Made by a program: the position numbers and the translations under genes. A DNA stretch of 62,900 bases, the filler included, from Hausera hauseri (taxonomy: Eukaryota), in the NCBI GenBank assembly GCA_046269625.1. It is 11 parts of 11 records of this genome, joined end to end, with 100 filler letters (N's around TTAATTAATTAA, not from the genome) between each part and the next. Parts side by side here need not be neighbours in the genome. Positions count along the whole stretch, not along the records: positions 26,278 to 30,628 come from JBJURY010622554.1; positions 30,729 to 34,852 come from JBJURY010746654.1; positions 34,953 to 42,092 come from JBJURY010036445.1; positions 42,193 to 50,053 come from JBJURY010900425.1; 7 more parts are not named here. One strand, written 5' to 3'. The notes beneath the pieces are model-generated. The model was given only the letters and a program-made list of their open reading frames with translations, was not told where the DNA came from and ran no database searches. How positions within the stretch are numbered: position 1 is the first letter of the stretch; each line of letters opens with the position of its first letter. This document shows, in pieces, positions 26,278-60,703 of this stretch.

Positions 26278-27716
26278 TTAAACCAAAACCAATTCTTTAT
26301 TTGATGACAAAAGAACCCCATCTGTAATTGTCGGGTTATTTTATTGTAGTGATATTCTTGGGGCGCCAATTCCCTTAACTTCCTTTCAGTATGTTTAGGA
26401 CGCTTAGAACGACAATTTTTGGCAAGTGACAGAAAAATCGAAATTAATAAAATGAGAACAAACGTTGATAGTATATCCAATTGATACTATCGGTAATGTG
26501 GTTAGTTCCATTGGTGCTTGTGCTGTAACTAGAATCGTGCTTTCGTCGTCTATGTTTTTGTATGTGTGCGATTTTGCACGAATTTCGTCTAAGGTGCGCA
26601 TTATCAGTATTCAGATTTGTTTATCTTCTGCGTGTACTTGTATTGTATAACCAGATTTTAATCTTAACAAATTGCGCTGTCTGGTAAGTGTTTTTAAGTA
26701 ATGTGACAATGTGATTATTGTATGTTGTTCGGCAGTTTATATGTATATCGTAATTTAGTTTTTTTTCTACAAAGAACACAATTTTGAATCTATACGCCGA
26801 ATACTTAATAGGTATACTCTGTAATTTTCTTTTAGGCACACTGCCTTGGGTAATGGGTTTGGTAATGGTACTGACTCGAGTGGTCGGATTTTTGGTTGTC
26901 GTTTCTATTGGAATCCTCCATATTTTATTCTTCGAATAATAGGTTCGTAACTGTATGCTCGGTTTGTTTGGCCTCACTTCATATAAGTCACATTTTATTT
27001 TGAATTCCTGGTTTACTGGAAGTTTATAACATAGATGTTGCACGCCCGCACGGACGGAACAGTATTCTATTTTTGGAGTTTGTCCGTTTACCGCTTCGAA
27101 GACAATACTAATTTCTTGATTAAATTTTAATCCTGTTCGAGCATCTACTTGGATGCATTGTTTTTCTTATTTATTGAGATACTTTTTATATTTTCATCTA
27201 ATAACCGTATATCTGGGTCGGTGGATTGTAGAATCGCCGGAGCCAAGGGGGAATAACCAACTGAAGTTGTGGGTTTACTTCTATATAGACTTCTGCTGAG
27301 TCCGACAAATACATGCAATAAGTAAGGACGTAGGTATGAATAAAATCTATGTTGCAGCACTGGGTATAATCTCCGAGTTCAAAATCACAGTTGTCCTCTT
27401 TTTTGTTGCTACATCCTATAGGACAATTTGAAATCTTCCAAAGTCGTGATGCAGTCCTCAAGCTTTAAATCCAGCACACAGAGTCTGGCAAAAAGTAATG
27501 AATCATCATTGATTGTAACAATTTAGTGTCTTTTCAATTTTGGATCTCTTCCGCTGTTGGTTTATTTTCCTTTACTACGTTTTTTTGTTTTAATCCACTC
27601 TTCCAAATTCCATATACGTTCTCTCGCGTAATTTGGTCGTACCATCATTGGGTTCGTGTTTTTGGTATGTAAGCAGCAATTAATAATAACACTAAGACTA
27701 TCTGCACATACGACAT
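26278..27716 (-). pseudogene. Family B ORF-D: type I membrane protein (signal peptide, Cys-rich region, FN3-like domain, TM, tail) downstream of integrase
   Basis: ATG at 27716 gives MSYVQIVLVLLLIAAYIP. TM is STFVLILLISIFLSLA followed by KNCRSKR. Colinear with 38920-39650. Confidence 0.65.
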
Positions 27717-27752
27717 CGGTCTAGCGATAATTGAAGAAGTTTGTATCTCACG

Positions 27753-30628
27753 TCAACGTAAATTGTAACGCTTATTAGGTCGTATCTTCGTCTTAACGAA
27801 TCTTTGTACTGATGCGACTTCTTCCTTACCATTTCTGTTGATGTACACTGTAGTTGGCGTAACTTTAGTAACCTCATAAGGTCCCCTGCCTGTACGAGTC
27901 AGTTTTAATGACGTACCTTTTTTGCTAATGGGTAATGTACATAAACCCAATTTCCTTGTTCCAAAATCGTGCGGTTTTGCTTTCTTAACATTTTGCTTCT
28001 TAAACTATTCTTGATATTTTCGAGATAATTCTTTGGCGATTTTACAGCACTTTTGCAATCGTGTCTGTAGTACTTCTGCAAAATTTTGCTCTAAATCTTC
28101 GGGACTGATCACGTATGGCGTCATTCCTAAATCTGTGAGCAACACAGCTTCACGACCATACATTATGAAAAATAGTGTAAATCCTGTTGCCGGATGTGGA
28201 GTAGTATTGATTGCAAATTGAGTTCCTTCTAGAAATTCGTCCCAATATTTTTGGTCTTTGGCTACTACCGTGGATAATATACGTATAACAAATGCGTCCA
28301 TTCGTTCAACCATTCCATTCCACTGCGAGTGATGGGCGGTGGTAGTTAACTGTTCGATTTCAAATATTTTGGTAATCTTTTCGAATAGTTTACTTATTCA
28401 CCGGAGGTCCATATCGGCAAATGATTCTTCTTACTATAGCTTCGGACAAGGTTTCTGCCTTTCGATCAATTAACGCTATCAAATCGACAAAATGATTTAG
28501 TCGATCAATACAAGTTAAGATATGTTTATTGTTTTTGTGGGTCGTAGGAAGTGGTCCTACGATACGCAATGACATGGCTTGCATAGGTCTGTCGGACACA
28601 TAGATTGGTTTTAATTCCGTCATGTAATTCTTTGTCTTTTTCTGTTTAGTTGCACATACTTCGCAAGCATTTACCCAGTTTTTCACATCAATATAGATAC
28701 TGGGCCAAAAGTATTTATGCAATATTCTTTCTAATGTTTTCTTCCAGGACATGTGTCCGGCCAAATATGAATCATGTTCCTACTTTAAGACTTCAATTCA
28801 ATAAGACTTCAATAACTATCAGCTCTTTTCCCTTTCGCTCATAATATAGAAGGTCTTCGAGACCCTTGTTGGCGATATATTATTTCTTTGAGCTTACTTT
28901 TCTTCCTTACAGTTATTGCACTTATTTTGGTTTTCAATATTGATAGTGCATCGGCATCTACATGTTTATTCCCTGGCTTATACTGGAATTCTATATTATA
29001 TCTAGAGATTTCTTCAATACATCTGTTTAGTTTGCATGTCGGCTTATTTGCTTGTCCTTTTAGAGTCGTGAAGACCTTGTGGCCAGTAACAATTATAATT
29101 TTCTGCCCGTACACGTAAATGTTGAAGTATCGAAGCGCTTCCTTTACGGCTAGAGTTTCTAATTCAGTAACGGAATAGTTTTACTTTGCCTTTTTCAAGG
29201 AACGTCCTCCATTAGGAATTGGGTCTTCTAATTCTTCATCTTCTCTTTCCTGCACGAAATCATATCCAACATATTCTTTACTGGCATCTGTCTTAATTAT
29301 CAATGGTAAATTGAAGTCTGGATATCACAGAACTGGTTCGCTTTTTAAAATTCTCTTCATTTTGTAGAAATTCTCTTGCTCGATGTCTGTCCATTTCCAT
29401 TTAATTCCCTTTTTAAGTTGTCGATATAAAGGTGCATTTATTTTCGAGTTATCCGAAACATAACTGGAATAACACCCACATAAGCCTAGCCAGTGTCTCA
29501 ACTCTTTCTGATTTTGTGGATTATGCAGTCTGATATTTTGTTCAGTAATGATTTATCTGGTTTTGATCCTCCTCCAACTACATGGCCAAGGTAGGATACT
29601 TCATTTTGAGCCAATTTACATTTCTTTGGGTTAAATTTTAATCCTGCTTGTTCTAGTCTCATCAGTGTGTGCTAAATATCTTTAAAATGTTCTTCTACCG
29701 TCTTTGACTCGATCATCACATCATCTAAGTATGCAAAAGCATGAGATAGTCCCATTAGCATTTTGTTCATCATTCTTGTACAAATGGCTGGTCCGGTAGT
29801 AATACCAAATGGCACGACATTAAACTCATAGACGCTACCGTGCATTTTGAACGCTGTTTTATATCGATCATCGTCTTCGATTTCTACTTGCCAGTATCCA
29901 GATTGTATATCCAGAGTATTAAACCATTTTTCTCCGGAAAGCCTATTCAAAGCTTCTTTTACGGACGGCAGCGGAAAAGAATCTTTCATCATAATGTTAT
30001 TCAGTGTTCTGTAGTCAATACAGAATCTTTTTTTTGTATTACCTTTCTTTTTAACCATGAGGATTGGTGAGTAACAAGATCTATAACTGTGTTTAATTAT
30101 ATTGGCTTTAAGCATACGTTTGACCTCTTTTCTTATCTGGAGTCTTAATGAATGTGGAGGAGGATTCCATTTCGGCATATTTTGATCTTCAAGATATATC
30201 TCTTCATTTGAACTAGGCTTCTTTTTAAGCGGAATGGTCAATTTTAATGCTTTTGCTCTACCGATATCTTCGTCATCTTTAGCAATGATTGATTTATAGC
30301 GACACAATAATTCATAGAATCGACAGTAATATTTGAGAGTAAACTTGGTTTTGAAATGAGGTGGAAATTCTGCATACTTGTAAGGCTTTTCTTTAATAGT
30401 TATAGACGACACTTTATAAGTATTACATAAAATAGTATAAAAATGAATCTTGATGGGAGTTGGTGCATTATTTGCTATTCTGATCGGTACATGATCGGAG
30501 TGTACTCTCGTCAATATGTTACTGAGTGTTATATTTGGATTTGATGTCTCTCTTGGTTCAAAATATACCGGCTGGTCGTCATCACGTTGAATTTGTGCGT
30601 AGACTATCATTTCGGTTCTCCGTGGAAT
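27753..30628 (-). mobile_element. Family B pol: RT, RNase H, integrase with GPY/F module (Ty3/gypsy order), degraded
   Basis: RFCIDYRTLN, DIQSGYWQ, PFG, YLDD; TDAS, YSVTELE; H..GH...CEVC; NGMVER; RGPYEV. Confidence 0.95.
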
Positions 30629-30728
30629 NNNNNNNNNNNNNNNNNNNNNNNNNNNNNNNNNNNNNNNNNNNNTTAATTAATTAANNNNNNNNNNNNNNNN
30701 NNNNNNNNNNNNNNNNNNNNNNNNNNNN

Positions 30729-32154
30729 ATGAGCGACAACCCTAGCAAGATACCAAGACTCTTGACGGCCAGCCAACGTTCTAAATACTTACAAGAAATT
30801 TATTTGAAGTTGAGATGGGAACACGAATGGACCCCTAAGAACCCTATACACAATTTACGCAGCTCTATTAACCCTGAACAGATAGATGGAAAGTACAGAG
30901 GAAATATAAAACCTTATTCCCCGATTCGAACTATTCAGCCAATGGACGAACACAATCTCCAGATTACAGTACCAAAACAGAAGACTGAGAATAAGATCAG
31001 ATCACAAACGACTAAAGAAAAGGAGACATTGCAAGAAACATCAAATGCCCCACAAGAACAGAAAAAAGAAAAAAGACCAGAAACGATAAATAAAAAGATG
31101 AGATTAGAGGAGAAACCCCAACCTAGAAAAACATTATCTATATACAATTACCTATTTAAAAGACGGAAAACGGACGAGGGACAAGAAATAGACAACAATC
31201 AAAATCAACCAAGCACTTCTCAAAGTATAGAACCGTCAAAGAAGGGAATTAAGAATCCCTTAATAACAGAAATCAATACCTTGATAGGCAAAAGAAGCAA
31301 AGAAGATGTACACTATAAAACAAATCAAGAATTTCCTAGGATGTTGGTAGCCACCGAATACTATAGCAAGAAAATAATAAAGGAAGCAATGTTCTTCGTA
31401 AAACTTGCCCCAGCCAGAGAGGTATTCGAAAACACATGTGTGGGAAAATGCTAAAATCGGAACTTATTTTACCTCAATATTTCGTTCCAAGGAAACAAGG
31501 AAAATAGTAGTTCCCGTGGATAAACAAATCCGAGTGTTATTGAAGAAACAATATCAAAAGTATAAGATAGAAGGAAATATTCCTGACCTAGACAAAGATG
31601 TGATGGCAGATTGGACCCTAATCCAAGTAGATTGCGACCCACGTAAAAGCTCCATTAACCCAAAACAAAAAGTGATTCATGGCTACTTATACCAGGATAA
31701 AGACGGTCTCGTATTCGAGCCTATTGAATTAATCATCCAGGTGGATTTGGATAGAGAAGACTGGAACAAGGAAGACAGCGAATGCCCCGTTTGCGAGGCA
31801 AACCTGAGACAAGGTTATGTGGTTCTAGATAATCGAAATTGCCGTCATAAATATTGTCGAGATTGTTTAGAGAAGTGGACACTCGACAATGGGAAAACGA
31901 CATGCCCAGTATGCCGGGCCGAGGCCACAGATTTAAAGTACTATTCGGATGGAAGTTACACACGGGTTGTTCGAATAAAACCCTATCATAGTTATGATCT
32001 GGAAACAAACGTAGTAATCCGTCGAGATCAACAAAACTCCCCTTCAGACTTAACAGAGAGAATGAATCAATTGAGAGATCCTAGAACGTTGGGCGTCACC
32101 TCTTCTGACGCAATAGGCTCCTCCGAGGATGCCGCTCAGGGAGGAGAAATGTGA
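30729..32154 (+). pseudogene. Family B ORF-E C-terminal part: RING-HC (C3HC4) finger protein with one frameshift
   Basis: CPVC...CRHKYCRDC...CPVCR at 31783-31917. Homologous to 40680-42031. Confidence 0.85.
32138..32149 (+). promoter_or_regulatory. Polypurine tract of family B (second copy at 42061-42072)
   Basis: Both copies read CGAGGATGCCGCTC, then a purine run, then TGT. Confidence 0.8.
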
Positions 32155-32784
32155 GAGAATGACAAATGGAATATCGAATACCGAATAGTCGATAATTGTA
32201 AATAATTGGTGTCGGAAAGTGCAGCGGTTATAATTTTAGAATTTTGTACATATTAGAATAATGTGCGCTATTTATCAAATTTTACGATAAATCTACAATT
32301 TTGAAAATTGACTTTTAACCAAATTGGACGACTAATAAACATGTGGAATTAGAATTAAATTGAGAATAAATATTATGTTGAGATAAAGCGAGATAAAGCC
32401 GAGTATATAAGCTGAAGTCAAAATTAGAAGTGGAAGAAACATTTTTTTTGCGACTTAGGTTCGCACAGCTTACTATTTTTCTTGCGAATATAATTGAGTC
32501 AGTAATTAGTGAACAACTTAGCGTTGGTCGAAACCGAATCGATTGAACGATATTTAATTCGAGTTCGAAAGAGAAAACTAAACTTGTGACATTAACGTTG
32601 TGATCATTGGAGATCTTGTGTATCGGTGTATATTAATAAAGGTTGATTTTATTTCGTTGTTAAAATCATATAGGTTTTCTTCATCGGCCCTTAAGGCTGA
32701 TTTGCACTTCCCTAAGGTCAAAATCAGACTCAACTTAAATAGTTAAGACTAGAAGTTTTAACCTAAGGCAATTGATTTTTTACA
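32150..32784 (+). repeat. Family B 3' LTR (right boundary approximate)
   Basis: Starts TG right after the PPT; TATATAA near 32404; AATAAA near 32635; candidate TTACA end near 32784. Confidence 0.55.
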
Positions 32785-32895
32785 CGCAGTACCTGCAATA
32801 CAGTTAAATTTTTTTTAATTTATTAAGGCACAAGCAGATTACTCGAGATCGAGTAATCCTAACCTGCTCGAAGAGCGACTCTAATTCGAAGTAAA

Positions 32896-33129
32896 TATTG
32901 TTATAGTGGGAGAAGGTAAGGGCCACCCCAAACTGTAACAGTTATATTATTGCGGCTGACCGATCGAAAATATTGGATAATGATGATAAGAGTGTAGCAG
33001 GTAGTGTTATCAGTACATCGGATGTTGAAACCAGAAGCACAAACGAGGGCAAGGAATCATCATCAAGATCAACTAATCGTTGTGTTATAGTTCCGGGTGG
33101 GCCCTATACGTCTCCCAACTATAACAATA
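32896..33129. mobile_element. MITE-like element with imperfect TIRs of about 40 bp
   Basis: TATTGTTATAGTGGGAGAAGGTAAGGGCCACCC at the left end vs reverse complement TATTGTTATAGTTGGGAGACGTATAGGGCCCACCC at the right end; TA at both ends. Confidence 0.7.
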
Positions 33130-36100
33130 AATTACACTACAATTTATGATAACGATTACTATGCAAGTTCGGTTTAACGTTCTCGATCTGATTAATGTGT
33201 CTAGTCTTTTTTGCAATGCTTGTATTGAATGCGAAATTGGTAACTGTGTTTCAAACACTTCTAATCCTAATTATTTAAGATTTTACTGTGGAATCTAGAC
33301 TTAATGTAGTGAAATCCCACTTAATGGGCGATGGAAACTATAGATAAATTTACAATAAAAATTTATTATACAAACAAGTAACCAAATTTTGGACGACTTA
33401 CAATGTCGTAATCAGAATATCAATTTCAATGGAATTATATCTCGTATTTTATTTCGGAATCTCGCTTTGATAACACTGAATTCTGCAACGATTGACTTAT
33501 TTGGAATCACACTTCACCGCAATATGACTGCAATACTGATTAAGTAACTACGGTCCGCAATCTGTTCAACTTCAACACCTAATCGTCTGAAACTGTTCAC
33601 TCAACAATATTCAACTGATGTTCGTTAGTTCACTACTTATATCTGCACTGAACGTAGGTGACTTCCTCTGAGTTTGATAAATATTTATTTGTATTTGTCC
33701 GAATTTCGCATGATTTCCGTTGAATAAATTAGTATTTCCGCTGATTAATTTCCGTTGATTATATTAACTGATTAATTCTCATAAAATAAACAGTGTCATA
33801 CAATAAATACATTTTAAGTGCATTTGTCCATTTCTTATGTACATCATCCTCTATTTTCTTATGATGTTCTGTTTTCACGTGACTAGAATTTAAATTTTGG
33901 CCCCAAGCAAAAGAAAAACTTTGTCATAACCCTAATATATGTGTGTGAGTGTGTGTGTACTAATTGATTGGATATTATACAATCAAATGAATAAAACCGA
34001 ATGGAGTTGACAGTTCGTCTTCTTATGACGACATAAATGACTAAATTGGTCCTTTCATCCAACAACATCCTAAAAGTGAATAATGATATCAAATACCCAA
34101 TTTAATTAAAATTTAGTAATGTATTACGTTGGATTTTACAAATCTTTTACATTTGTTTTTGTTGGACAGCGCATTTCCAATAATTTCAAATAGAATTTTC
34201 ATTAACTAAACATTTATGTCTGGAAAAATTTCCAGTAATAAAAATTATTATGCAAAAAAATATTTCTTTGAAAACCACTTCAATTTTAATATCACATCAT
34301 ATTTCATTAATATAATTGAGAGGATTGCCACTTTCTTGGTGATGCTTGAGCATTTTACTCAGATCGTCAGTATTCTTATCCATTATTTAATTAATGGTAC
34401 TAATTATTCAGAAAATGTGAATTATGTTATTTCCATTAGATTTTTGTTATTAATTCGTAATTCTCACGTATAGGATTAATATATCACACCGCGTTAGAAT
34501 AAAGCAGATCAAGGTATTATATTTCATTAATGAATTTTTGTACAAAACATTTGTTGAAATTTGGTATGGGACGATGTTAATAATAAATAAAGTATTTAAG
34601 CCAATAATGCTAACTGATTGGTGGTATATTGTTGGTGTGTCTTACCCTGCGTTTTTCAAGTACCTACAGTGAAGCTCCGTTAGTATGAATTTCTTTCAAA
34701 TTCTCCGAGTTTCGAATTAACCGAAATCTTCCTTTGGGAGCCAAATCCCGTGCAGTAAATTCTGATTTTATTATAGAACACGTTTGCATACCATTTAACT
34801 TACAATTGATTGATTTATACACTTAATATGATGTTGCAAGTCCCTTCTTGTCNNNNNNNNNNNNNNNNNNNNNNNNNNNNNNNNNNNNNNNNNNNNTTAA
34901 TTAATTAANNNNNNNNNNNNNNNNNNNNNNNNNNNNNNNNNNNNNNNNNNNNTAAGAACTATAGGTGAATCTAATAATCAACAAGTAATCAAGGCCAGGA
35001 AGAAGTATGAAGAAAATTGGCAGCAAATGGAAGTTTATCATAGATTAAGAGAACCAAAAACAGAGTACAAAAAGGCTATAGCGCCTAGGAATACTAACAT
35101 GGCCAGAAAGGAAAACCTAAATCCAGTAGCAAAGCCGACTACGTCTTCAAGTGTAGACTTGGATGCAGATACCGAGGTCGAACCTCAAAATAATGACAAA
35201 ACAACATATGAGGTTGAGAGCAAATTCATTGGTCCACTGATACTCAAGATAACCAAATATAGAGGTAAAGGCCCTTCACTTAGGAGAAGATCAGGACTCC
35301 TTCACGATCCCCTATTAAAAAGGATGTAGAAAAGGAGGATGACTTTATCATCACTTTAAGAAATGAATGATGTATGTCCATTACCCCGTAGTGAAGAGGA
35401 ATCAAAAGAGAAAAAACCTGTTAAGTTTGGGAAGATTAGAAAATCTTGGAAAAATGCAAACGAACTAACCAAAATAAGAGACGCACTGAACGATCCCGGA
35501 AGGTCACAGGAGAGCCTACAAAAACTTCAGCAGATGAGCAAACAGTTGGATATCTCTGGGAAGGAACAACAATTCATAGAGAAGATATATAAAAAACTTA
35601 AACCCGGCCCTCACAAGGAGAAAGAAAACATACCTCACGAACTCCAAGAAACGCGGCAAGACTTGATAGGAAGTTGGAAAATAAAATAGAACTGTGGACA
35701 AAGAGTGGGATCGATTTTACGAAAATATGGTGGAATAGAAATGAGCCGTTTCTTGATCAGGTTAATCAAGCGCAAGGATTATTAGACACACTAAAGGACA
35801 ATCCAAAACTAAAACGCGTAAGACGTTATTTAGAAGGATTGATATATGAGATCGAATATGCGATAATTTCTTATCTCCATAACAAGCCAGTATATGAACT
35901 AACTAATGCCGACTTAGAGATATTGGGTATAGACCCAATCGATATTCCCCCTCTAATAGCATTGTGCAGCCTGATAAAGAATAGCCCTCGAAAATACCCA
36001 GATTTAAAAAACCGGATTGAAAGAGAAAACAAAATACAAATCAAAATTAACGACTGTAAAATCGGTGTAGTTCACCCTGGAAGAGCAGAAGCACAGAGAA

Positions 36101-37564
36101 TAATACGCGCTTATCTTCTTGAATTAGACGAGTATAAAGACGAATTCAACTACATGAAACATATCATAGAATTTGTATGAGGGCCAGATCACGAACTAAA
36201 AGAAGCTGTTGAGACATTAAACGAAATAATCTACACTAAACCGGCAATATCCAAACAATTAAAGAAGTGGATAGACTTTCTACCTTCAATAGCAGGGATA
36301 ATAAACGAAAGACTGAGGGAATTCGCCGTGGTTGAACCTATAATAAGAAACCAATTGGAGGAAATGTTACTGGATATCGGTACGATGGAAGAGGAAGCAA
36401 AATTACGAATCAAATTCGAATCATTCCGAGAACTTGAATTTATGAGAAACGACACTAACAGAGATATATAATATGATAGAAGAAAAGGAATTCTACAGAA
36501 AAAGAAGCAAGCTAAGTGATCTTCAGCGAAGTTTAGCAAATATCCGTAGGGTAGGAATACAGAGCCTAATGCAGAAACCGTTGAAGGAAATCTCAGTACA
36601 GGAAACAGAAACGTTAGAAGTATGTAATGATCACCGGATTGCTCTAGCGCAAACAATACAATATTTACAGAATCCAGCAGAATGGACGCCAGGTTTCGAC
36701 CTACATTGCCACACCGAACTAACGGAAATTAGGAAGGACCTTCAGTTGACGAGCGATGAAGCCAAGTTCATAGGCAGGCTAATAGACGCAATAGATCCGG
36801 ACGTCGAAGTATTAAATCAAACACACAAATTAATTCTACTATTAACAGAAATGGCAGAAATTGACGAAATAGTAGCCAGACGACTAACAGATCGAATACG
36901 TTTGATAAAAGAAACACGGTTACGCTCCGAGAAAAGACAGCGCGAGCTAAGCGAATTACTGAGAGAAACAGAAGTTTATAAGAACAAGTATTACCTTACG
37001 GAATCTGAAATGAACGACAAAACGGAATTTATACAGAGATGGCAAAGAGACAAAATCGCAAAAATGATTAGTTGTCGGGAGAAAGCTCTGATACAACCAG
37101 AAGAAATGTACCGATTAATAACATTGATACAGCAATCGTGCGGAAATGGAGACGGATTTAGGATATCCGTAATGAAAACATTACAACCGCAGATAAGAAA
37201 ATTACGCAAAAGAGTCCAGGTCAGACATGCGGCACTATTGAACTACGAGTTACCTGACGCAAATAATGATGCCGAGTGGGATGAATATCTCCTAGGTTTA
37301 ACCGAGCGAAGTCAAAGAACCCCAATACAAATTTATGAGTCACCTACTGGTGCCCAGAAGATGAAATTTAACGTGCAAATACTACTTGATCCTGCGCTAG
37401 CTGAAAGGGAATTGAGCGGTGCATTGAAAACAAACATAAATGAAGATAAGTTAAAAAAATTGATTCCAACTCTGACTAAGCTATACAGTGAAAATACCGC
37501 ATACAGTGCACTACCCAAGCTCCTAATAAGAGAATACGCTAAACTATTGAAAAATAAACCGAAA

Positions 37565-37790
37565 GCGGAAATTAAAGTGAAAGAATCATCCGAATGGATG
37601 AACAATGAGGAATTTGAATGTACTACCTATACCACCGTTGGGAATACAAGACAACGGATAATGGATAAAAATGGTAGGAAAGGAGTTAATTACCGACTTT
37701 ATTTCAGAGGCAGGATATTAAACGAGCTAGAATCCTTAATAAACGTAGGAATTGTACCTTCCGAGGAAAATCGAATAATAGCAATAATTG
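37565..37790 (+). other. Ubiquitin-like domain within family B ORF-A (second copy about 46965-47190, minus)
   Basis: IKVK...TTVGNTRQRIMDKNG..VNYRLYFRGRILNELESLINVGI and TSVGEIKQWIVQNSG..ENYQLYFRGRILDEPELLIDVRI align with ubiquitin [37 protein letters not shown]. No terminal GG. Confidence 0.75.
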
Positions 37791-39702
37791 TCAGTGAACA
37801 GACCAAAGACGAAGCCATAAGAAAGGCACATACAGAATCTTGCGTTGGAAAAATCATGGGGATTCAGGATGCCGCAATGTATTTCGAATACTTACAAACT
37901 GATGATGACAACCCGCAACACGATAAAACTTAGTCTCTCTAAGTGAAACCTTACTACCGATGAAGTCTAAACGACCGGTCGGAAAACCGAGAAAAAGAAA
38001 AGAAATTAACTATAATGCAGACCTAATTAGGAAATTTAGACAACTATAGGTACCAAGCCCGAGTTGAGCTAATGAAAGGCCTAATTAGGATAGTCAATTA
38101 TACCGGACTCCAAGGCGACATATTATCCGAGAAGAAAAGACTAATATATAATATAGCCCGGACAATGAAGATTTCACGATTTAAATTATCTAAAAGCATC
38201 CTCCCTGAAGAAACAGTAATTTATAGAATTATGATAGACAATACGATGGAAGAATTAGGGAAAGTCTTGATATATTTAGCAATCAGAACTTAACCACTCC
38301 GGGAAAACGAATTTGACAAGACAATTGGGTTAGCTAGAAAAGCTGCAAGAAGGGTACCTAAAGAAATAAAATGGACTAAATTGTTCGAAAAAGGGGAAAA
38401 TACAAAAGGAACTAATAAGTTAGAGGATATGATACGAAATATCTTCCCGAACAAAGGAAACGAACCCAATTGGTTAATCAACTTGCTGACGATAATGATG
38501 CTAGTAAAGCAGATAAGAACAGTTACTATATACGACTGCGACAAATTTAATGTGGATTCGAACGTTTAACCACTACCGCGTACCACCCCAAATTTAATGG
38601 AATGGTCGAACAAATGAACGCAACAGTCATTCGAATATTATCAACGGTAGTGGCCAACGACCAAAGGGATTTTGGCGAATTCCTAGAAGGGACACAGTTC
38701 GCGATCAATACGACCCCACATTCAACAATAAAATTTACACCGTTCTTTATGATGTATGAACGAGAGGCAATCTTACCCACAGATTTAGGTATGATACCGT
38801 AAGAAAAGAACCTCGAGGATCTAGAGCAAAATTTTGCCGAAATCTTATAGACAAGTTTGCAGAAGTGTCGGGAAGTTGCAAAAACATTATCATTCGAATA
38901 CCAGATACATTTTAAAAAATAATTTATACACTTATATGAAGTTCAACCGAACCAGTCGAGTATTTACCTAGGAATTTATCAATTGAAAAATCAAATTTGG
39001 GAAACTCCACCGGAAATGACGACAAGCGGAATTACGACTACAAAAATAAATATAACTATTTCTACATGCATCAAAATCGTCTAAAAGAGTGGATTGTCTC
39101 AAAAGGATTTAGAATGATTCCTATAAAGTATTGGACACAACAACATGAAATAACTTTCGTTGTGGAGGAAGCGCTTAATTACGACGTAGAAATAAGCTAC
39201 CGAACATTACATAATAACCAAAAATTAACACAGGCTAAAGGTCGCTATCAAATCAAATGTACCTAATTGAAACCCAAAACAGACTACATAATACAAGTAA
39301 GTGCAGAGAACAGACAAGATAGAACATTTACGGTACGGACTCTAAACGAGATTGTCTTAACAAAACCACTAACTAACGAGGAAACGGAAGAGGAAACTAC
39401 GATTACCGTCAAAACGAAAAAACTAACTAAATGTACAACTTTTTAATAATATCAATTATTGGATCGTCAACATTTGCTCTCATAACTTTTGTTGCGTTTT
39501 TCCGATTTATTGCCAAAAACTGCCGTAATAAGAGTCATAAAATCACCGAGAGGGAATTAAGGGTAATGGTACCGCAGGATGGAATCAATGATAGAGTAAC
39601 TTGACAATTACAGGTCGGGTTATTCCACCATCAAACAAAGAATTAATTCAGATTTAGAACAATACTTTGTTATAGGATTGACCCTTATTTTTTGTTTTCA
39701 GA

Positions 39703-42031
39703 ATGGTAAGTACGGATAGCCGAATTAGAATCGAGGAGTATTTACGGAGACAAGCTACAGTGTTTATTCCAAACACAAAATCTATTTCTAAAAGGATAAC
39801 TGAAGCATTGCAGGCAAAAATCTATGCCGAATTTTCGTAAACCAACGAAATTCCCAATGATCTAAAGGGTATTACAGAGGAAAATCACACGGTTTTCCTT
39901 TAGACAATGCGCGAAGATAACCAAACTAAAGCATATTCCCTAAGGGAATTAATCCGAAACCGACTAGCCAAAATTCAAGACATATACATCCACCTAGCCG
40001 ACGGAGAAATATATTATAGAGTAGGAAACCAAACCTGAAACTCCAATGAAGGGCATCAATATCGATTTAGCACATTTAAAATAAACGGAAAGGGTTTAGA
40101 ACGTATTGACTACGGTCTAAAATTTAGAGTATCAGCCCTTCCTGTTAAACTTATGTTCGAAGTGACCTACACAGAGGGTTGTAATCTACGCTTGCCAGCT
40201 CTAGAATTTAAACAATTTCCAACTGAGGAAAAGATGAACATCGTAAGTCATATAGACTAGTCCAAGATGGTCGTAACGTAAGAATCACCGCGATAAATTG
40301 TGGCAAAGGAAATGATGGATATGGAAGTATCTATTAGAGAAAGGGATGGGGTCGAAATATACTCCACAATCATAAACCCCCGGAAGTATGCTCAAGAATC
40401 GTACGCAGAAGTAACTGGTTTAAGAGAGCAGCTTATAAGAGGAAAAGACAGTAGACAAGTCCGTTCGGAGTTGGACCATTGTCTTTACGGTTGTATGTTG
40501 GCAGGATATAACGTGCAACGATCAGTCGAGTTACTAAAAATATCCGATGCAAATATTGCCGGAATTAGGAAAATAGCCACCCACCCAATAGTCCAAGAAC
40601 GAATGGAGGAAACCATACAAGGAAGAAATCGACCGACCGCTCCAGAAGCCATCTTCACGTTAATGATCGAAGCAATGAACAACGACTCGAGTAGAATTCA
40701 GACTTAACGGCTAGCCAACGCTACAAATATTTACAAGAAATTTATAAATCACTAAAATGGAAACATGAATGGGCCCCTGGAAACCCCATATACAATTTGC
40801 GCAGTTCTCTGAAGCCCGAACAAATAGATACCAAATATAGAAGAAACATCAAACCTTACTCTCCGATCAGAACTGTCCAGTCGATAGGCAGCCACAATCT
40901 TACAATCACCATACAAAACCAGAGGAGAATATAACGGAATTACAAACAATCGGGAAAGGAAACAAAACGCCCAATAAAACGTCAAAGTCTCTAGAAGAAC
41001 ACAAGAATTGAAGCCGAAAACAATAGTAAAGAAACAGAAAATAGAAGAAAAGCCCCAGTCCAAAAAACGCCATCTATTTATAACTACTTGTTTAAGAAAA
41101 GAAAAGATGAGAATCTAAAAGATGAAAACCAACAAATTGAACCAAGCACCTCTCAGAAGGCCAAATCCGTAAAAAATCAGTGAACCTATGATAACTGAAG
41201 TCAATGTCATTAGGGAAGAAGATCGAAGAAAATGTCCACCATAAAACAACTCAGGACTCATCAAGAATGTTGATAGCCACAGAATATTGTATCAAGAAAA
41301 TGATCAAAGAAGCTGTTTTATATCAAAGTTGCCCGGCCAGAGAAGTTTTCGTAAATACATATGTTTGGGAAAACTCTAAGTTAGGAAATTACCTTACCTC
41401 AGCCTTTCGCTCAAAAAGGACAGGAAAAATTATAGTTCCGGTAGATAAAAAAATCCGGATATTAATAAATGAACAATATCAAAGATACCGAATGGAAGGA
41501 AAAATTCAAGATTTGAACCAAGACCTTATGGCGGATTGGACCTTAATACAAGTAAGCTGTGACCCACGGAAAAGTTCCATTAACCCTAAGCAGAAGGTAA
41601 TTCATGGATACCTTTATCACGATGCGCATGGCCTTATATTCGAGCCCATTGAACTGACAATCCAGGTTGATTTAGATAGAGATGATTGGGACAAGGAGGA
41701 TAATGAATGCAATGTGTGCGATGCTAACCTGAGACAAGGTTATGTGGTATTGGATAATAAAATTTGCCGCCACAAGTATTGTCGGGATTGTTTTGAGAAG
41801 TGGACACTCGACAATGGAAAAGCGACATTTCCAGTGTGCCGAGCAGAGGCTACGGATCTGAAATATTATTCTGACGGAAATTACACCCGGGTTGTTCGCA
41901 TTAAGCCCTACCATAGTTATGATCTAGAAGCCAACCCCTCACGAAGTCAAAACCAACCGGATTCCCAAACCAACTTACGAGAAAGGATGGAACGGTTGAG
42001 GCGACCAAAGACGCTAGGCGCAACTTCTTGA
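39703..42031 (+). pseudogene. Family B ORF-E full extent: about 780-codon protein ending in RING-HC
   Basis: ATG at 39703, right after a polypyrimidine/CAG acceptor, is in frame (through several stops) with ORF 40300-40707 and continues via frameshifts to the RING at 41708-41842, where the 7th ligand is C>F. Confidence 0.65.
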
Positions 42032-42399
42032 CGCAATAGGCTCCTTCGAGGATGCCGCTCAGAAAGAAGAGATGTAACAGTGCTGGACTATANNNNNNNN
42101 NNNNNNNNNNNNNNNNNNNNNNNNNNNNNNNNNNNNTTAATTAATTAANNNNNNNNNNNNNNNNNNNNNNNNNNNNNNNNNNNNNNNNNNNNCGAATTAA
42201 CCAATCAGCATGCGAGACGCTTGTGATTGGTCAATTGGTGCGTGGGTGGACCCCCCCCCCTCCCCCCTTGTTCCAGAAACGCCTTTTTCCCCCTACTTAG
42301 GTAATATCAACATAGGCCTAGCCAATGACTTAATTCTTTTTCGTTCTCAGGCTCCATACAGTCCGAAATTTTGTTCAACAACGATTTGTCTGGCCTTGA

Positions 42400-43800
42400 T
42401 TTTCATTCTCCAACTATATGGCCAAGGTACGATACAGCGTTCAGAGCCCACTTACACTTTTTTGATTTAGTTTTAACCCAGCTTGTTATAATTTCATGAG
42501 TGTGTCTTCGATGTCCTTCAGATGCTCCTTTTCGGTTTTTGATGCAATTATTACATCATCTAAGTACGCAAATGCATGTTCCAGTCCCTTTTGCATTTTA
42601 TTCATCATGCTGGTAAAAATGGCTGATTTTGTAGTAATTCCAAATGGCATAACGTTAAATTCATACACAAATCGTGGGTTTTAAACTCCGTTTTATAATG
42701 GCCTTCATCTTAGATTTCTACCTACCAGTATCCGGATTGTAAGACCAGAGTGGTAAACCTTTTTGTTCCTGAGAGCCTCTAAAGCCTCTTTCACAGATGG
42801 TAAGTGGAAAGAATATTTCATCACAATAGTATTCAGTGCTCTGTAATCGACACAAAATTGATATTTCGTGGTACCTATTTTGACCATAAAAATGGGTGAA
42901 TACTAAGATCTAAAGATCGGCCTTATTATATCGGCCTTGTGCATTCGTTCCACTTCCTTAGTTATCTCGGGTCTCAAGGAATGTGGTGGTGGATACCATT
43001 TTGGCATCTTCTGCTCTTCCAGATCAATTTCGTCATAGGAACCAGGCTTCTTCTTAAGTGGTATAGTCAGCTTTAACGCTTTTGCTCGACCAATGTCTTC
43101 TTCGTCCATTGCAATAATGGATTTATATCGACATAATAATTCATAAAATTGACAATAGACTTCTGGTGAGAATTTAGTATCTACGTGAGGTAGAAATGCG
43201 GAATATTTATATAGTTTCGCTTCAACCGTTATTGCTGATACTTTATAAATGTGTCTCAAAGTAGTGTTGCGTATAATTTTATTAGAGTTGGCGCACTGTT
43301 CGCTAATCTAGCTGGTATACGTCATCTTGACAGATCTGTGCAAATATTAACAATTTCGTTCTGGGCGGAATCTAGGCTGTATCTAATTTCTAACCGGAAT
43401 CCATAATTCTCCGGGTTTTCTTTCTTTGTTAATTTTTGTCCCTTTTATCGGTCCAAGTTGGATTAGCTTCGCGGTGTTTAAGTCTACCGCTATGCTTGGG
43501 AGACGCCTTAGTACATCTCACCCTAATACTACGTCATCCGTTAAGTGTTCCATTATAGAAAATTCATGTTGGAATGTTTGTCCCATTATACTGATATTGG
43601 GATTCCATTTAAAGTTCGGTCTCGATTCTTGTCCAAAAGCTCCTATGCTTCCGGGATCGGTTGCTAGCGGTAAACGTAGTTGATGTCGTAATACTTTTGG
43701 TATTGATCCGTTTTTATGAACGATTTCTCTGAGCTGGTATATATTAGCGCATAAACTTCCCAATCATCAATACTGATTTTGGCGAAGGGTCTACATTATT
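42400..43800 (-). mobile_element. Family B pol 5' part: degenerate protease and RT
   Basis: RPFAKISIDDWEVYALI(Y)T(S)SEKSFI is a mutated DTG site; DDVVLG; FCVDYRALN, MPFG, YLDD. Highly similar to 29672-30420. Confidence 0.9.
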
Positions 43801-44209
43801 TTATCCTAGGCTGTTTAACGCTGGATATCTTGTGCCCATTTATACTAATTTCTGGTATGCTACTAGTATCTTCGGCTATCTGTCTCGATTCGATAATGGG
43901 ATATAATCCGCTATTTACGCAGTTTCCATCGTCCCGCTCCTGCGTACAGATTAATAATTCTCTGTTGTTTGAACAATAGAAAGAGTGAATTCGTGGATTA
44001 TCCCAAACTGACGATTTGGTTTGTACATTCCGCGAAATCCACGGGGAGTATATCACTTTGCGGTCATCTACTGATCGGTGACGTTACTCGAATTTTTCTC
44101 TATTTCCGTACATTTTCCGTAATGCATCGCATTGCTGTGTACCTTCATAAGGGTTTTTATAGTTCAAGGGTTTCATATAGTTTTACGACTTGTAAGAGTT
44201 AATTGATCG

Positions 44210-46270
44210 TTAGTTGCAGTCCTCGTATAATGGCGCCGAAGGGGGCAGCATAGGCAGAGGCGATTTTAAGACATAGTACTCCTTATGCTTGCATATTTTG
44301 GAGACCACGTCTCCTCCCTTAGGCTCATCATCATCTGAATTATTTCTTCGTAATTTCATATCCCTTTGTCCTATGAAGAATACGGGTTTTCTTTTTCGTT
44401 TTCGATTATAATAGACAACATGTCTCTCAACATCGCTTTTCCATCTGCTCTCTTCATACGTCTTCAAAAATTTTCAAAGGGCTTTATAATCGCTGACAAA
44501 ATTTTACACGAAAATCCAGTTAAGGCAAATATTTCATAGCCATTTATAACGGATTGAATTACTGACTTAATGAGTTGTACTAAAATATAGATAACTAAAA
44601 ATTCAGATGCAGCTTGTCCTCAAATTAAAAATCTTCCCCAGATCTTGTATAATATCTCCGTGGTGATTCTTTGATAATGATTGGAACCAAGTAGAAATTC
44701 CCATTTTGCTTGATAGATAGTACTATCTATTACCGTTGACATAGCTGTATTCAATTCATGTGTACGCTGACGATAGAAAGCTGGAAACTGTCTAAAAGCC
44801 TCAATTTCCTTTGGTCTGTAAATTCCTTTGCTCGCGGTATCAGAAAACTTATCATCCGTTATACCTTTTAACAAATTTGTCCCTGTTAGTTTATTAGGCG
44901 TGGCTATTATTCTTCCATTTGGCAGGCTTAGCCAATCTATCTCACTTTTACTAAACATAGGTTCGCCTAAACCTGATTTACATTCCTTCAAAATCGTTGG
45001 CTGTGTTGAATTTTCCAATAAGACTCTCGTAAGTGGCATGGCTAACCGAGGTACGTTCTGGTATAGAACTAGCAATACTTGCATACAACGTTTCTCTTCT
45101 ACGTTTATGGATACATCCCGTCTTTTGCATTCGTGTGTTAACAGAACTTCTCCGGTGACTCTTCCGAAAATACCTTCTTTTATGGGGATCACAGGCACTG
45201 CTAGATCCGAGTTGGCACATATTAAGGCCACTATGGTCCTCATAATTTCTGTGTCCAATTTACAGTTATTTGCGATTATTTTGTGACATAATTCTGCTAT
45301 TTCGGCTTGTCCTTTATAATAAAAAGAATCGTCTCTATTTTTCAAGTAATCTTCTATTCTTACCTCTTGTGTTTCCAATGAATAAGTAGTTATTGCAGCT
45401 TCTGCTACGAAAAATGCTTCATAATTGGTGGCACACATCACTACGTTACATCAGGGGAGCATTTGTTTCTTAATAAACTTTAACCCATGATCATCGGAGA
45501 TTAATATCGTTGGTGTGGAGTGTTCGGTCACATCCTTCCTTGACCGAGCATTATTATCTATCGTATCCACATATCTTTTCCCCGTGGTTTCGTTAAAACT
45601 AATCTCTTTTATTTTAATGAAATTACAGCCACTCGCAGGAAGTGGAATCCAATTAATTATTGAATTGCGGAAAGTACAGGCACCATCTTGAATATGACAC
45701 TTCTGGTTTTCGGTATATACTTTCGTAACACTATGAAACATCACCTTTTGATTTCTCATTTCTGTCTCATAAAAATCGACTACTCCTCCTCCTTCTTTTC
45801 CTCTTCCAGTATCGTATTCACCTCCCTTACAGTACCCGGTTTGAATATGTAGCTTTTTAATTGCTACTTTATATACCCTAATTATTCTTCCCTACTCCAC
45901 ATCGTCCCACCTCAATCTTCCGGTTTCTTTAACTGGTTTACACTATTGTCTGTCTAAATCCATGGTAATTAGCGGAGTAGTTGGTTTTATTATTGATGAA
46001 TGTCCGTGCATGTTCCCACAATGAAAAATGCTTCAAGATCTGCGTAACATGCATTCTATCCCGTCTACCGCAATCAACTTGCGTTGATGATACAAAAAGT
46101 ACTTTTTCTCAACGGTTACTAACTTGTGAGGTCTGGCGTCCTCGCACATTTCTAAATCCATCAGAGAATATTTCTGACCTAGCTTGAATTTATCACAGCC
46201 GTACACCGTGATTTCTCCCAGTTGTCTTATTAGCACCATGAGCGTTATTAATTTAATCATCCAATTCGGT
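44210..46270 (-). pseudogene. Family B envelope glycoprotein, chuvirus/Jingchuvirales-like (class III fusogen type)
   Basis: Signal then VYGC..YSLMDLEMC; C....FHCGNMHGHSS; C...ETG; GYCKGGEY; C...DGAC; C.LDTEI; G.FGRVTGEVLLTHEC; CMQVL.V; PLTRVL; SKGIY; W.RFL.*G...LVIYILVQLIKSVIQSVINGY TM region. The Cys spacing and motifs match chuvirus-type glycoproteins as I recall them. Confidence 0.8.
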
Positions 46271-49200
46271 TCGCTGTCTCGTGCTGAGTTGGGTGGCATT
46301 AATTCCTTACAACATCTTTAATTCTAATGGACCGCCTACTTTCGCCTTCATCATCAATTAGTTTGGACCAATTAACTTCTATAGGTATTTTCCTGGCCAA
46401 GCCAATAGTCCTATTAAATTCATTTCCCCGCGAGGAATTTGTTTTGATTGCCAAGTACAATACAACTTTTCTTAATTCTTTTTTAGTATTTTCCACCATG
46501 GTTTTCGCAATTACAACCTCATCAGGCAAGGTACTTTTATTCGTCTTGAACCGGGATGTTCTGATTATCCTCGCAGCATCGTATATCGCTCTTTCCTTTT
46601 CATCCAACATGTCACTTCTTGGTCCCGAATAATTCACTATTTTTATAAGATTTTTTATTAACTTGGTTAATTCTTCATTGTCGGAGTTAATTGTTGGCAT
46701 TGACATTTGCCTCAGTTCTCGAATTAGATCTGCGTTATGGTCGGTTTCGTCTCTTACGTTTCTTTGTCTTCCAATTGATCATTTTTGTTTCGCCGGAGTC
46801 GGAATTGCTTCTCTAAGCGGCACTAAATTCCTGTCATATTGTTCTTTATCTTCCTCATTCTAAATGTAGTCAAAATACATGGTAGGGTACCGAATTCCCA
46901 TAATGCGTCCTACACAATGTTCAGCTCGTGCTTTCCCTTATCGTTTTGTCTTTCGTCTGTTCATCAGTAATTATGGCCAGTATTCTATTGGATTCCTCCG
47001 GAATAATTCTAACGTCTATTAGTAGTTCGGGTTCATCCAGTATTCTGCCTCGGAAGTATAACTGATAGTTTTCTTCGTCTTTACCACTATTTTGTACTAT
47101 CCATTGTTTTATTTCTCCCACTGAGGTTACCGTTGTACACTCAATTTCCCTCTCGTACATCCACTCGGCTGATATTTTTACCTTAATTATCGTTTCGGGT
47201 TTAGCCCTCAAGATTTTAGCGTACTTCCTTATAAATAGTTTTGGCACGGTACTATAAACGGTATTTTCACTTGATAATTTAGTTAAGGTAGGGATTAGTT
47301 GTCTTAGTTTGCTTTCAGTTATATTTAAGTTAATTTGTTCAATTAAATCTTTCTCAGCCAGTGCAGGACCGAGCAGCATATCCACATTAAATTGTCAGTT
47401 CGATGGAAGTTGGATAGGCGTTTTAGGATTCTGGTTGTACACATCCTCCAAATAGGTGTGCCATCCTACGTCGCCTGTAACGTCTGGGAGTTCATAGTCC
47501 AATAATGTCGTGCTCGCGCATTTCACATTTTCACGGATCTTGTTTAACCTCGGCTGGACTTCTTTCATTAAGGTAGTTTGGAACTCCACTGCGTTTCCAC
47601 ACTCAATTTGGAACATTTTTAATGGTGGTCCTAATTCGTCTGCAGGAATGAGCCCTTTTCTTTCATAATTCGTTAATTCAGTAGTCACATCTGCTAACCA
47701 CCTCTGTGGAAATTCATTTTATTCGTTATCTCCGATCGAGTAAACTTACATTTATTCCTATAGATCTCTAGTTCATTGTCTAATTCATCTAACTTTGTTG
47801 CTCTCCGCTTCGTATGGATACGATGTTCTTCTATATCTCTAACTTGGGTTGTCAATTTTCGTGCTTTGTCATCATTTATTTCTGACATTGCTGATAACAG
47901 CGATATTAGTCCTTGCATTTCATTTAGAGTCTTAGAATCTGGGTCTACTTCGTCAATCAGTTTCCTTCGAACTTAGCCTCGTCCGATGTGAGTTGACTGT
48001 CTTTCTTTATTTCTCTCAATTCAGCATGGCAATTTTGGTCTGTTCCTAATGTCCATTCAGATGGACGATGTAGAAATTTTAGTATTTCTTCTAACGCATT
48101 CCGATGGTTCGGACAGATATCCAGCGTTGTTAAATCGTATATCGATATTTCATTTGTGGGTTTCGTCGTCAAATATTGTGTGCCTTCTAGGCGAACGCGT
48201 TTTAGTCCTGTAACGAAATGGGACATCATTTCCCGTTTCGTTGACAACTCTATCTCTTCGATCATCGCGTATAATCCTTCCACGAATGTTATTTCCTGAT
48301 TTTTGCTCATAAAATTTAATCTTAACAATGCGTTGAATTCAACCCGAAGGGTTGCCTCTGTTTTCAGAGCATCTAGATATCAGAGTATTTCTTTCAACCG
48401 TTGTTTGGATATTGGTTCACATATAGAATATTTCCTCAAGTGATACTTCGTTAAGTATGCTAATCTATACAACAATTCAATCCATTCCTTGTGATGGTTG
48501 TCTATTACCGGTTTCGCGTATATTACATTTTCTAGTTTTTTATAGGCATTGTTTAGTTTGTCGTCTGGACCTTCGATATATTCCATTATTTCTATAACGT
48601 AATTAACTTCATTCTTGTACTCATCCAGTTCCAGAATACACGTTTTCGTTATATTTTGCGTTTCTGGATTTTCTATTTTCGTTATTTTGTTCTTACATCT
48701 GTAAATCTCGGAGCGTCTTTTATCCTTTAAGACTATACGAATTCCTACATCCTCATATTCCTTAGGCGCGTTGAACGCGATTTTGCACATTTCCATTACG
48801 AGAGGAATATCTACCGGTTCTATTCCCAGTATTTTGAATTTGTTTTCATCCAGTTCGCTTACTGGTTTATTTTTAAGGTAATAGATTATTGTATCCTCTA
48901 TTTCTTTTATTAAATTATCTAGGTTACGCTTTGTTATCTTCTGTTTTGGTTCCGCGGCTAACATCTTTAGTAATTCCTGGGCAGTTGTCACTTTACTTCA
49001 GATTTTAATCTCCTGATTATTCAATATCTCGGTGAAGTCGATTTCCATTTTTATTCATGAGCTCAGTTTTGTTCGCCATTCTTCAATTGATTTCTCAATA
49101 GCTTCTTCTGATTATTCTAGTTCTTCGTCCCTTCTAGCATTTTCCTCAATGTACTTTTTAAATGCATTACACATTTTCTCGGCAAACTGTTGTTCCTTCC

Positions 49201-49616
49201 CGGATACATCTACTTGAGTTTTTATACTTTCCAGTTCCTCTAAGTTACGACGTAAAGTCTCCAGGTCAGTCAATAGTGTCCTAATCTATTTTAATTTATC
49301 CGCATTCTTCCAAGATTTCCTGATCCTCCATAATTTCCCGTCGAGTTTCTCAATTCGTTCCGTTCGGTCAATTTCGCCTTCGCTTATGGGTTGCCGACAT
49401 ATCTCGTTTATTTCATTGTTTCCGTCTCCTGCTTTTATAGTTATACTTGCATCATCTGTTATTTCTCTAAGCTCCACATCAGGAGTGCTAAAACTTGAGA
49501 CGTCCTCCACATCGATATCTCTGGGATTGATCCGCCCTGAATTTTCCTTTTTGAAACTAACTTTTATTAACTAGATTCTGTGAATTTTACAAAAAAAGGA
49601 ATTTGGAAAAAATATA

Positions 49617-49687
49617 CTCCCGACCGGGAATCCAACCCGGACCTTCCACGTGACAAGCGGAGATACTTACCACTATACTATCGAGGA
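49617..49687 (-). tRNA. tRNA-Asp(GTC)-like pseudogene, copy 1
   Basis: TCCTCGATAGTATAGTGGTAAGTATCTCCGCTTGTCACGTGGA... The T-loop is TTGGATT, the acceptor 3' strand is one G short, and TTTTTT follows downstream. Confidence 0.8.
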
Positions 49688-49852
49688 CTGATTAAATTAT
49701 TTTAAATTTCCATGTTAATTTAACCACATCATTCCTGCGTCAATGGCTCGACTCCACACACTTCCAATCCGTTCTTATGTCAGCGTATAGAACTAACTTT
49801 TATTAACTGGATTCTGGGCACTTTACAAAGAAAGGAATTTGGAAAAAATATA

Positions 49853-49923
49853 CTCCCGACCGGGAATCCAACTGGGGCCTTCCACATGACATGCGGAGAT
49901 ACTTACCACTATACTATCGAGGA
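49853..49923 (-). tRNA. tRNA-Asp(GTC)-like pseudogene, copy 2
   Basis: Tandem copy with a 236-bp period and additional mismatches. Confidence 0.75.
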
Positions 49924-50153
49924 CTGGCCTTTTTGTTTCCTTTTTATCGATGGGCTACGGCCTCTATTCTTCGTTATTTTAACCACTAACGGTGCTATAT
50001 ATTTACTCTTAATTTTTTCGGAAGCGGCAGTCTCTTCTCTTGTTAGTTTTTCGNNNNNNNNNNNNNNNNNNNNNNNNNNNNNNNNNNNNNNNNNNNNTTA
50101 ATTAATTAANNNNNNNNNNNNNNNNNNNNNNNNNNNNNNNNNNNNNNNNNNNN

Positions 50154-50492: not shown

Positions 50493-51213
50493 AGTGCCGT
50501 GGTGTCTGTCAAAAGGCACCAAACAGACAAGATTCGCTGGCAACCTGACAACATATAACGAACTGGTGGGTTTGTTCAAAGAGCCCTTGAGTACGCAGGT
50601 GGCTCGTAGAACTACACGACGTGAGAAAGTCGACTTGAAATGCCTACAGTGCATAACGATACTACCAACCATGGAGAAATCAGCGCACGATGAGGTGAAA
50701 TTCGTCATTGCGTTCTATTTGTCAAGCAACTATTTTTTTAATGTTCTTGTTATTAACAATTCCTTTTTCCTTTTTCTCTCTTATCTTTTTGTTCTCAACA
50801 TGTCTGGAACAACGTCACCCTTTTAAACTTAGCCCACCGTTGCGGTAGTCCTTTACATCCCATTTACCATGATAGTTCAGATTTCTGCCTATATACGTGC
50901 AACAATACTCTTGAGTAACAATAGAATCACAGTGTGACCGACTACTCAACCGTCCATCACTTCGCCATCCACTAGGGCCTGTGACACCCCTCTCGTTTTC
51001 CTTTTTCATAAATAACTCGCAAATACGGACGCACAACATAACATACCATATAGATACACTGTACTTACACAAATTTATAAAACATTTTACTACCTTTTCA
51101 GACTTTTACTTAACCCTTAATAATATACCTCTCGTTAATGTCGATGTCCGAAACTTTTTTCTTCTCGAACCCCACACCTCACTATTCATGTACATTTGCG
51201 CATACGTGGTGGA

Positions 51214-60680: not shown

Positions 60681-60686
60681 TGCCTT

Positions 60687-60702: not shown

Positions 60703-60703
60703 A

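Follow-up and report, generated by a model that had tools for sequence, protein, structure and literature searches.

We analysed a 62,900-nt stretch of DNA (the window) from Hausera hauseri (Eukaryota; GenBank assembly GCA_046269625.1), made up of 11 contigs with N spacers between them. Four separate contigs, S6 (positions 26278-30628, JBJURY010622554.1), S7 (30729-34852, JBJURY010746654.1), S8 (34953-42092, JBJURY010036445.1) and S9 (42193-50053, JBJURY010900425.1), hold decayed copies that belong to a single large family of Ty3/gypsy long terminal repeat (LTR) retroelements. In this family an envelope gene (env) of the gB type precedes the pol region, and a pair of open reading frames, ORF-D and ORF-E, lies behind integrase and inside the LTR boundary of the element. 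The order of modules, the shared frame of ORF-A and env, the position of the cargo within the LTR boundary and purifying selection on every module are seen in the sequence; that the family is an endogenous virus of the Burro type, with a flatworm as host, is likely. An earlier note on this DNA had proposed the architecture; each interval it assigned to the element is an entire contig or, in one case, the left half of a contig.

Overlapping copies of one element

All contigs of the window were compared all against all with BLASTN and at the translated level. S6 and S9 overlap in the spacer between aspartic protease (PR) and reverse transcriptase (RT) and in the RT region (73% nucleotide identity, 954 bp); S6 and S8 in integrase (IN; 73% over 349 bp) and at the end of ORF-D (69% over 180 bp); S7 and S8 in ORF-E (71%, 1401 bp); S8 and S9 in ORF-A and the start of env (66% over 531 bp, with 38-49% amino acid identity over ~3 kb). 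As a control, the best six-frame score of each contig pair was set against 8 block shuffles: the four overlapping pairs scored 164-358 bits versus 25-27 bits in the shuffles, while the pairs expected to lack an overlap, S6/S7 and S7/S9, remained at the shuffle-like level of 24-26 bits. Joined through these overlaps, the copies form a closed loop that reads ORF-A, env, PR, RT, RNase H (RH), IN, ORF-D, ORF-E, polypurine tract (PPT), LTR. The claims that four copies overlap into one architecture, and that they are diverged in DNA (66-73% nucleotide identity) yet colinear, are thus borne out.

A single contig, S8, carries ORF-A, the start of env, the integrase core, the rear of ORF-D, ORF-E and the PPT. 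Two deletions have shortened it: ~5.0 kb is lost from the env body to the integrase core, and ~1.0 kb from the integrase end to the middle of ORF-D; S9 and S6 fill these two gaps in the same module order. The links env-PR-RT (S9), RT-RH-IN (S6) and ORF-D to ORF-E (S8) are each seen on a single copy. The earlier assignment of modules to contigs holds as to order; ORF-A and env, listed there as separate, share one frame in S8, and the two S8 deletions have to be added.

The lengths from the start of S8 to the end of the LTR sum up to 13,921 bases (a sum of lengths only, excluding gag and the 5' LTR), or ~14.7 kb once a 5' LTR is added and more with the unseen gag; the predicted size of at least 14-15 kb therefore stands. 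The element has the pol order of Ty3/gypsy (Metaviridae): RT, RH and IN stand in this succession (Pfam, S6), a PR remnant lies ahead of RT (by eye, S9) and the PPT is followed by a TG start (S7, S8).

ORF-E and the LTR boundary

The frame of ORF-E crosses the PPT and ends within the first five LTR bases in both copies that reach the PPT (S7 and S8). A HMMER search against 1.84 billion proteins identified P0001 (870 aa, E 7.5e-63), which among the matches listed is the sole relative beyond the RING domain; the other 149 matches listed have E 1.9e-16 or weaker and nearly all run across the RING stretch. P0001 is an intact natural protein encoded on one 16,242-bp ENA contig. It aligns in one open frame to S8 39730-41938 and S7 30729-32151, so ORF-E is one gene of ~800 codons and extends well beyond its RING end, and the terminal residues of P0001 are the same as the ORF-E end at the PPT and LTR. 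No related locus was detected in the viral contigs and JGI metagenomes scanned. The overlap of ORF-E with the PPT and the LTR start, together with the matching end of P0001, rules out a flanking host gene, a possibility that the earlier note had raised for ORF-D and ORF-E; the cargo lies inside the LTR boundary of the element.

The RING profile scored 38.1 bits in S7 (cut-off 27.3) and 30.8 bits in P0001 (cut-off 21); the RING of S8 is decayed. The front of ORF-E bears a weak likeness to DEDDh 3'-5' exonucleases, with PDB matches to PolC (E 0.013) and DnaQ (E 0.018), and we read it as a likely dead nuclease of this type; an Atlas score of 0.88 for RNase_T is a lead only. The ExoII aspartate of PolC stands opposite a non-acidic residue in S8 and, by eye, is missing in P0001 as well. 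A fold model of this front part (predicted local distance difference test, pLDDT, 32) was too poor to use.

To place the LTR we used contigs of the public run X1, which contains 0.68 of the S9 words and may be the source sample, hence is not independent. After the PPT, 103 X1 contigs part from S7 right away, and 61 do so at ~32931-32940; summed over 32765-32946, X1 depth is as high as at the PPT (the depth of a contig is no measure of copy number). A related LTR end (33085-33333) lies inverted 145 bases away, the two LTRs facing each other tail to tail, and at 33085 separates from S7 exactly past the terminal CA. Its terminal octamer is the reverse complement of the post-PPT octamer in 18 X1 contigs, and the S7 end is one base different. 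Break points, depth, inverted end and octamers together make 32150-32940 the likely extent of the LTR, its ends being conserved and its middle variable; the end at 32784 given earlier was abandoned in favour of 32940. A less likely reading takes 32785-32940 as the head of a different LTR in inverse orientation. Among X1 contigs the two LTR ends are frequent and the part between them is seldom seen, and 103 contigs diverge directly behind the PPT, the pattern of a highly variable U3.

Selection and age

Ratios of nonsynonymous to synonymous substitution rates (dN/dS) were calculated between copies for each module by the pairwise Nei-Gojobori method. Codons were derived from alignments of the proteins after a filter at 25% local identity; this filter pushes the ratio down, while decay after insertion pushes it up. 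The ratio was 0.11 for the RT region (334 codons), 0.11 for integrase (117 codons), 0.18 and 0.11 for the two halves of ORF-E (178 and 254 codons) and 0.44 for ORF-D (201 codons; 0.24-0.63). For ORF-A (882 codons), dN was 0.43 and dS was saturated; 137 of 300 bootstraps were finite, giving 0.08-0.22. The proportion of differing synonymous sites (pS) was alike high across modules (0.58-0.75). Every module is thus under purifying selection. At an identity of at least 80%, 10,830 X1 contigs map on S8, which is a sign of a large family and no count.

The module-by-module comparison proposed in the earlier note therefore gave dN/dS values of 0.11-0.44 at near-saturated synonymous sites. Together with the number of X1 contigs and the intact relative of ORF-E, these values argue that the lineage is old and diversified and that its complex genome has been stable, as had been suggested, rather than that the element is a one-off chimera.

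Polyprotein, env and ORF-D

Coordinates of the features are given in Table 1. ORF-A has more than 1100 codons, and its sole database match is a weak ubiquitin-like one (PF00240), found at the same place, ahead of env, in both copies. In a comparison with PDB, 57 of 60 among the matches listed for this stretch belong to the ubiquitin family (single-domain E ~0.06). The helical domain that follows has 48% identity between S8 and S9 and seven predicted helices at pLDDT 40 (a poor model). A profile search with ORF-A returned weak helical matches only; no midasin likeness was found by sequence, and no gag motif was seen in S8 ORF-A. The CCHC pattern is absent from the 7 window contigs scanned, and the 5' part of the element lies outside the window. 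The pair of tRNA-Asp(GTC)-like genes inside S9 ORF-A rests on a 136-bp duplication (93% identical), perhaps a tRNA-derived short interspersed nuclear element.

S8 reads from position 38294 into the start of env with no stop or frame change, so ORF-A and env form one polyprotein; S9 is frameshifted there. The match of S9 env to PF24664 (Monjiviricetes fusion glycoprotein) spans 607 residues upstream of PR and RT, and the protein has a hydrophobic leader and a membrane anchor near 44598. The junction of env and PR is covered by S9 only, with a frame change near 44340. A proline-rich tetrapeptide in the env tail (44231-44242, − strand), which we take to resemble a Tsg101-binding late domain, is present in one copy and may be due to chance.

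By eye, with no score attached, S9 env shares five successive motifs (env domains I-II) with all 6 Schmidtea rows of Platyhelminthes_C1a in the accessible parts of the PMC13524379 supplement; in 2 of the 114 parts of that file, the motif series was not seen by eye in nematode, bryozoan or branchiopod rows. The env match suggests a flatworm host.

By eye, a second protease-like start seems to lie ahead of the protease remnant, at ~43800-43860 (−). The spacer between PR and RT, possibly dUTPase-like by its sequence pattern, had no Pfam or PDB match.

The membrane anchor of ORF-D is present in both copies. ORF-D begins in the integrase frame, 12 codons past the integrase stop codon (in one decayed copy), and may therefore be the end of the polyprotein rather than a separate gene. 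Of the two accessory genes that had been placed behind integrase, both keep their position; the standing of ORF-D as a gene of its own is uncertain.

Table 1. Features of the retroelement copies on S6-S9 (some coordinates, counted by hand, carry a possible error of a few codons)
Feature	Contig	Coordinates	Strand	Remarks
ORF-A	S8	34955..38470	+	at least ~1170 codons; 5' end cut off
ORF-A	S9	46300..50053	−	long helical region; stops and frameshifts, cut by contig end, tRNA insert
Two tandem tRNA-Asp(GTC)-like genes	S9	49615..49924	−	within ORF-A; secondary insert, outside family layout
Ubiquitin-like domain	S8	37610..37753	+	Pfam PF00240 E 0.012, under cut-off
Ubiquitin-like domain	S9	47008..47133	−	Pfam PF00240 E 0.0049, under cut-off
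All-helical predicted domain	S9	46302..46778	−	site of Burro BCL2-like domain; S8 partner 38054-38450
env leader and first residues	S8	38470..38550	+	in ORF-A frame, then deletion joint to integrase
gB-type env	S9	44434..46263	−	PF24664 E 9.9e-43, residues 22-628; in-frame stops
Aspartic protease remnant	S9	43450..43795	−	recognized by eye, catalytic motif degenerate; without Pfam match
PR-RT spacer	S6	30330..30628	−	100 residues
Reverse transcriptase	S6	29450..30100	−	PF00078 E 2.4e-24; S9 partner ~42300-43150
RNase H	S6	28839..29300	−	PF17917 E 1e-10
Integrase	S6	27753..28779	−	zinc finger PF17921 E 5.4e-16, core, GPY/F-type end; core in S8 38557-38919 (+)
ORF-D	S6	26278..27716	−	broken copy; signal-like start, then Cys-rich and FN3-like parts, anchor near 26486 and a short tail
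ORF-D, rear half	S8	38932..39650	+	FN3-like PF00041 E 0.0022, under cut-off; anchor near 39440
ORF-E	S8	39703..42077	+	~800 codons; DEDDh nuclease (likely dead), then basic linker and RING; PPT 42061-42072, stop in LTR start (42073)
ORF-E, rear part	S7	30729..32154	+	intact C3HC4 RING, PF13639 E 1.8e-9; PPT 32139-32149, stop 32152-32154
3' LTR (likely; end inferred)	S7	32150..32940	+	791 bp, TG...CA

Other contigs of the window

One contig bears an uninterrupted 966-codon Xrn1 fragment (15877-18777, −; Pfam E 1.5e-80), an ankyrin piece (14614-15246) and a putative neurexin/CASPR-like piece (19707-20297; no Pfam match); these are stacked intron-free pieces of host genes. A second, ordinary Gypsy family is present on four contigs (2236-3800, 4985-8850, 9691-11000, 51175-55600, 57719-58340), with a pol dN/dS of 0.16; two of its copies have host-gene pieces upstream, one NOMO-like (4052-4609) and one with armadillo repeats (12694-13086). 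S10 contains a 414-bp repeat with 90% identity. At 60135-61318, an 87-bp inverted repeat (90%) surrounds a gag-like ORF (60244-60687, −; recognized by eye, no Pfam match). As a candidate for the missing gag, the gag-like ORF on S11 was discarded because it does not overlap with S6-S9.

Alternative explanations

Burro elements of planarians, according to the accessible part of PMC6431247, encode a polyprotein composed of Gag, a MATH or midasin-like region, Ubi2/SUMO, BCL2, a mononegavirus-type Env in frame, PR, dUTPase, RT, RH and IN; they also bear RING, BIR and ankyrin motifs, and their internal region reaches 25 kb. Judged against this description, membership of the H. hauseri family in Burro in the strict sense is somewhat favoured.

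Several further points weigh against the reading as a Burro-type virus. Several clades gave rise to the GAG-ENV-POL order, so it is in itself no proof of kinship. Matches to ubiquitin, FN3 and DEDDh all fall under the curated cut-offs. The helical domain had no match supporting BCL2 likeness in Pfam, PDB, Atlas or fold comparison (poor model, best Z 4.9), and MATH, BIR and ankyrin had no Pfam match in the visible part of the element. Relatives of ORF-A or env were not found by a word-index protein search (weak evidence according to the note on that tool). The window contigs include no full-length, LTR-to-LTR copy, and S6-S9 contain no gag, primer binding site or 5' LTR. All functions of ORF-D and ORF-E discussed below are ones that we infer.

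The family could instead be a GAG-ENV-POL lineage apart from Burro, moderate in size (16-18 kb), with cargo of its own and only the env clade in common with Burro. This would fit the unmatched BCL2, MATH, BIR and ankyrin, the polyphyly of the order (as far as covered by the accessible part of PMC13524379) and a 3' cargo that the accessible part of PMC6431247 does not describe for Burro. The succession of ubiquitin-like domain, helical domain and in-frame env is, however, the Burro order, and ORF-A already exceeds 1100 codons before any gag; we hold such a lineage to be unlikely.

The four contigs could also come from sister subfamilies with different cargo, the summed layout never having existed in one element: the copies are just 66-73% identical in DNA, three links are seen on one copy each, and S8 is rearranged by its two deletions. 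But S8 runs from ORF-A to the PPT on a single contig, in the same order as found independently in S9 and S6, and synonymous divergence is alike in all modules, which makes this explanation improbable. That ORF-D and ORF-E belong to the host as neighbours of the element, or are passively captured scraps of mRNA, is most improbable: FN3 and RING are common in host proteins, and other window contigs do join retroelement ends to host-gene pieces, but the overlap of ORF-E with the PPT and LTR start contradicts this, both ORFs sit between integrase and PPT in S8, and both diverged under selection between copies.

Proposed roles of env, ORF-D and ORF-E

Ty3/gypsy elements multiply by reverse transcription, with PPT priming, and by integration. 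If the family is a Burro-type virus, the unseen gag would head a single long polyprotein, the hydrophobic leader would direct env into the endoplasmic reticulum, and signal peptidase would release it from the polyprotein; the released env would act as a class III fusion protein in cell-to-cell spread. ORF-D might be a second surface protein, an attachment factor or a receptor decoy; this is a doubtful guess from domain content. ORF-E would be made separately, joining an RNA-binding dead nuclease to a RING ubiquitin ligase which would mark RNA-bound host proteins of silencing or sensing (defence) for destruction. For this role of adaptor and E3 ligase the domain content is again the guide, and the proposal is equally doubtful. 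The complete picture, a giant flatworm endogenous virus with a gB-type fusion protein inside the polyprotein, an FN3 attachment or decoy protein at the polyprotein's end and a PPT-spanning, LTR-locked dead-nuclease-RING counter-defence gene that ubiquitinates RNA-bound silencing factors, is on balance unlikely. If true, the accessory genes of complex retroviruses would have a counterpart among invertebrates.

Comparison with known elements

The novelty of layout that the earlier note had implied is not upheld, as giant Gypsy elements with env before pol are published for planarian Burro and for errantiviruses of flatworms, nematodes and bryozoans (accessible parts of PMC6431247 and PMC13524379); since the layout is known from Burro, only the rear cargo, ORF-D and ORF-E, looks new. 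A literature search for FN3 or nuclease-RING 3' cargo found no description, with most subscription papers and the primary Burro papers, which may describe it, outside its coverage.

The H. hauseri family resembles Burro1-4 and GYPSM1 of planarians in a mononegavirus-type env between the polyprotein front and PR, in frame with the front, a ubiquitin-like domain shortly before env, a PR-RT spacer, RING-bearing cargo and very many decayed copies. Burro BCL2, MATH, ankyrin, gag and a size above 20 kb were not seen in S6-S9. Burro1 has BIR and RING, and this cargo of Burro1 reportedly protects the stem cells of planarians (accessible part of PMC13465017); here, unlike in Burro1, the RING lies behind integrase in fusion with a DEDDh nuclease that is likely dead, and BIR found no match. 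The FN3 membrane ORF present here goes unmentioned for Burro in the accessible part of PMC6431247. The Burro type of giant env-bearing retroelement would thus gain a branch with a different rear cargo, selected across a divergence that saturates synonymous sites, and a nuclease-like RING fusion in a sister branch of Burro1 would be a testable case of an element manipulating its host.

GAG-ENV-POL elements with a gB-type env occur in flatworms, nematodes and bryozoans, and the order is not monophyletic (accessible part of PMC13524379). Those of Platyhelminthes (Smed_errantivirus_1-6, C1a) are similar to our family in having env before pol and in the motifs of env domains I-II, recognized by eye; in the accessible part of that source the Smed_errantivirus_1-6 group is described with three ORFs, none behind integrase, and RING is unmentioned in the main text.

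The bdelloid rotifer LTR elements Juno and Vesta, as described in the accessible part of PMC5408684, also carry DEDD-family cargo behind pol (a DEDDy ORF3), and their dUTPase between PR and RT and small membrane ORFs can be likened to putative features here. Their nuclease keeps its catalytic residues and is without RING, and env, if present, is of the paramyxovirus F type and stands behind pol.

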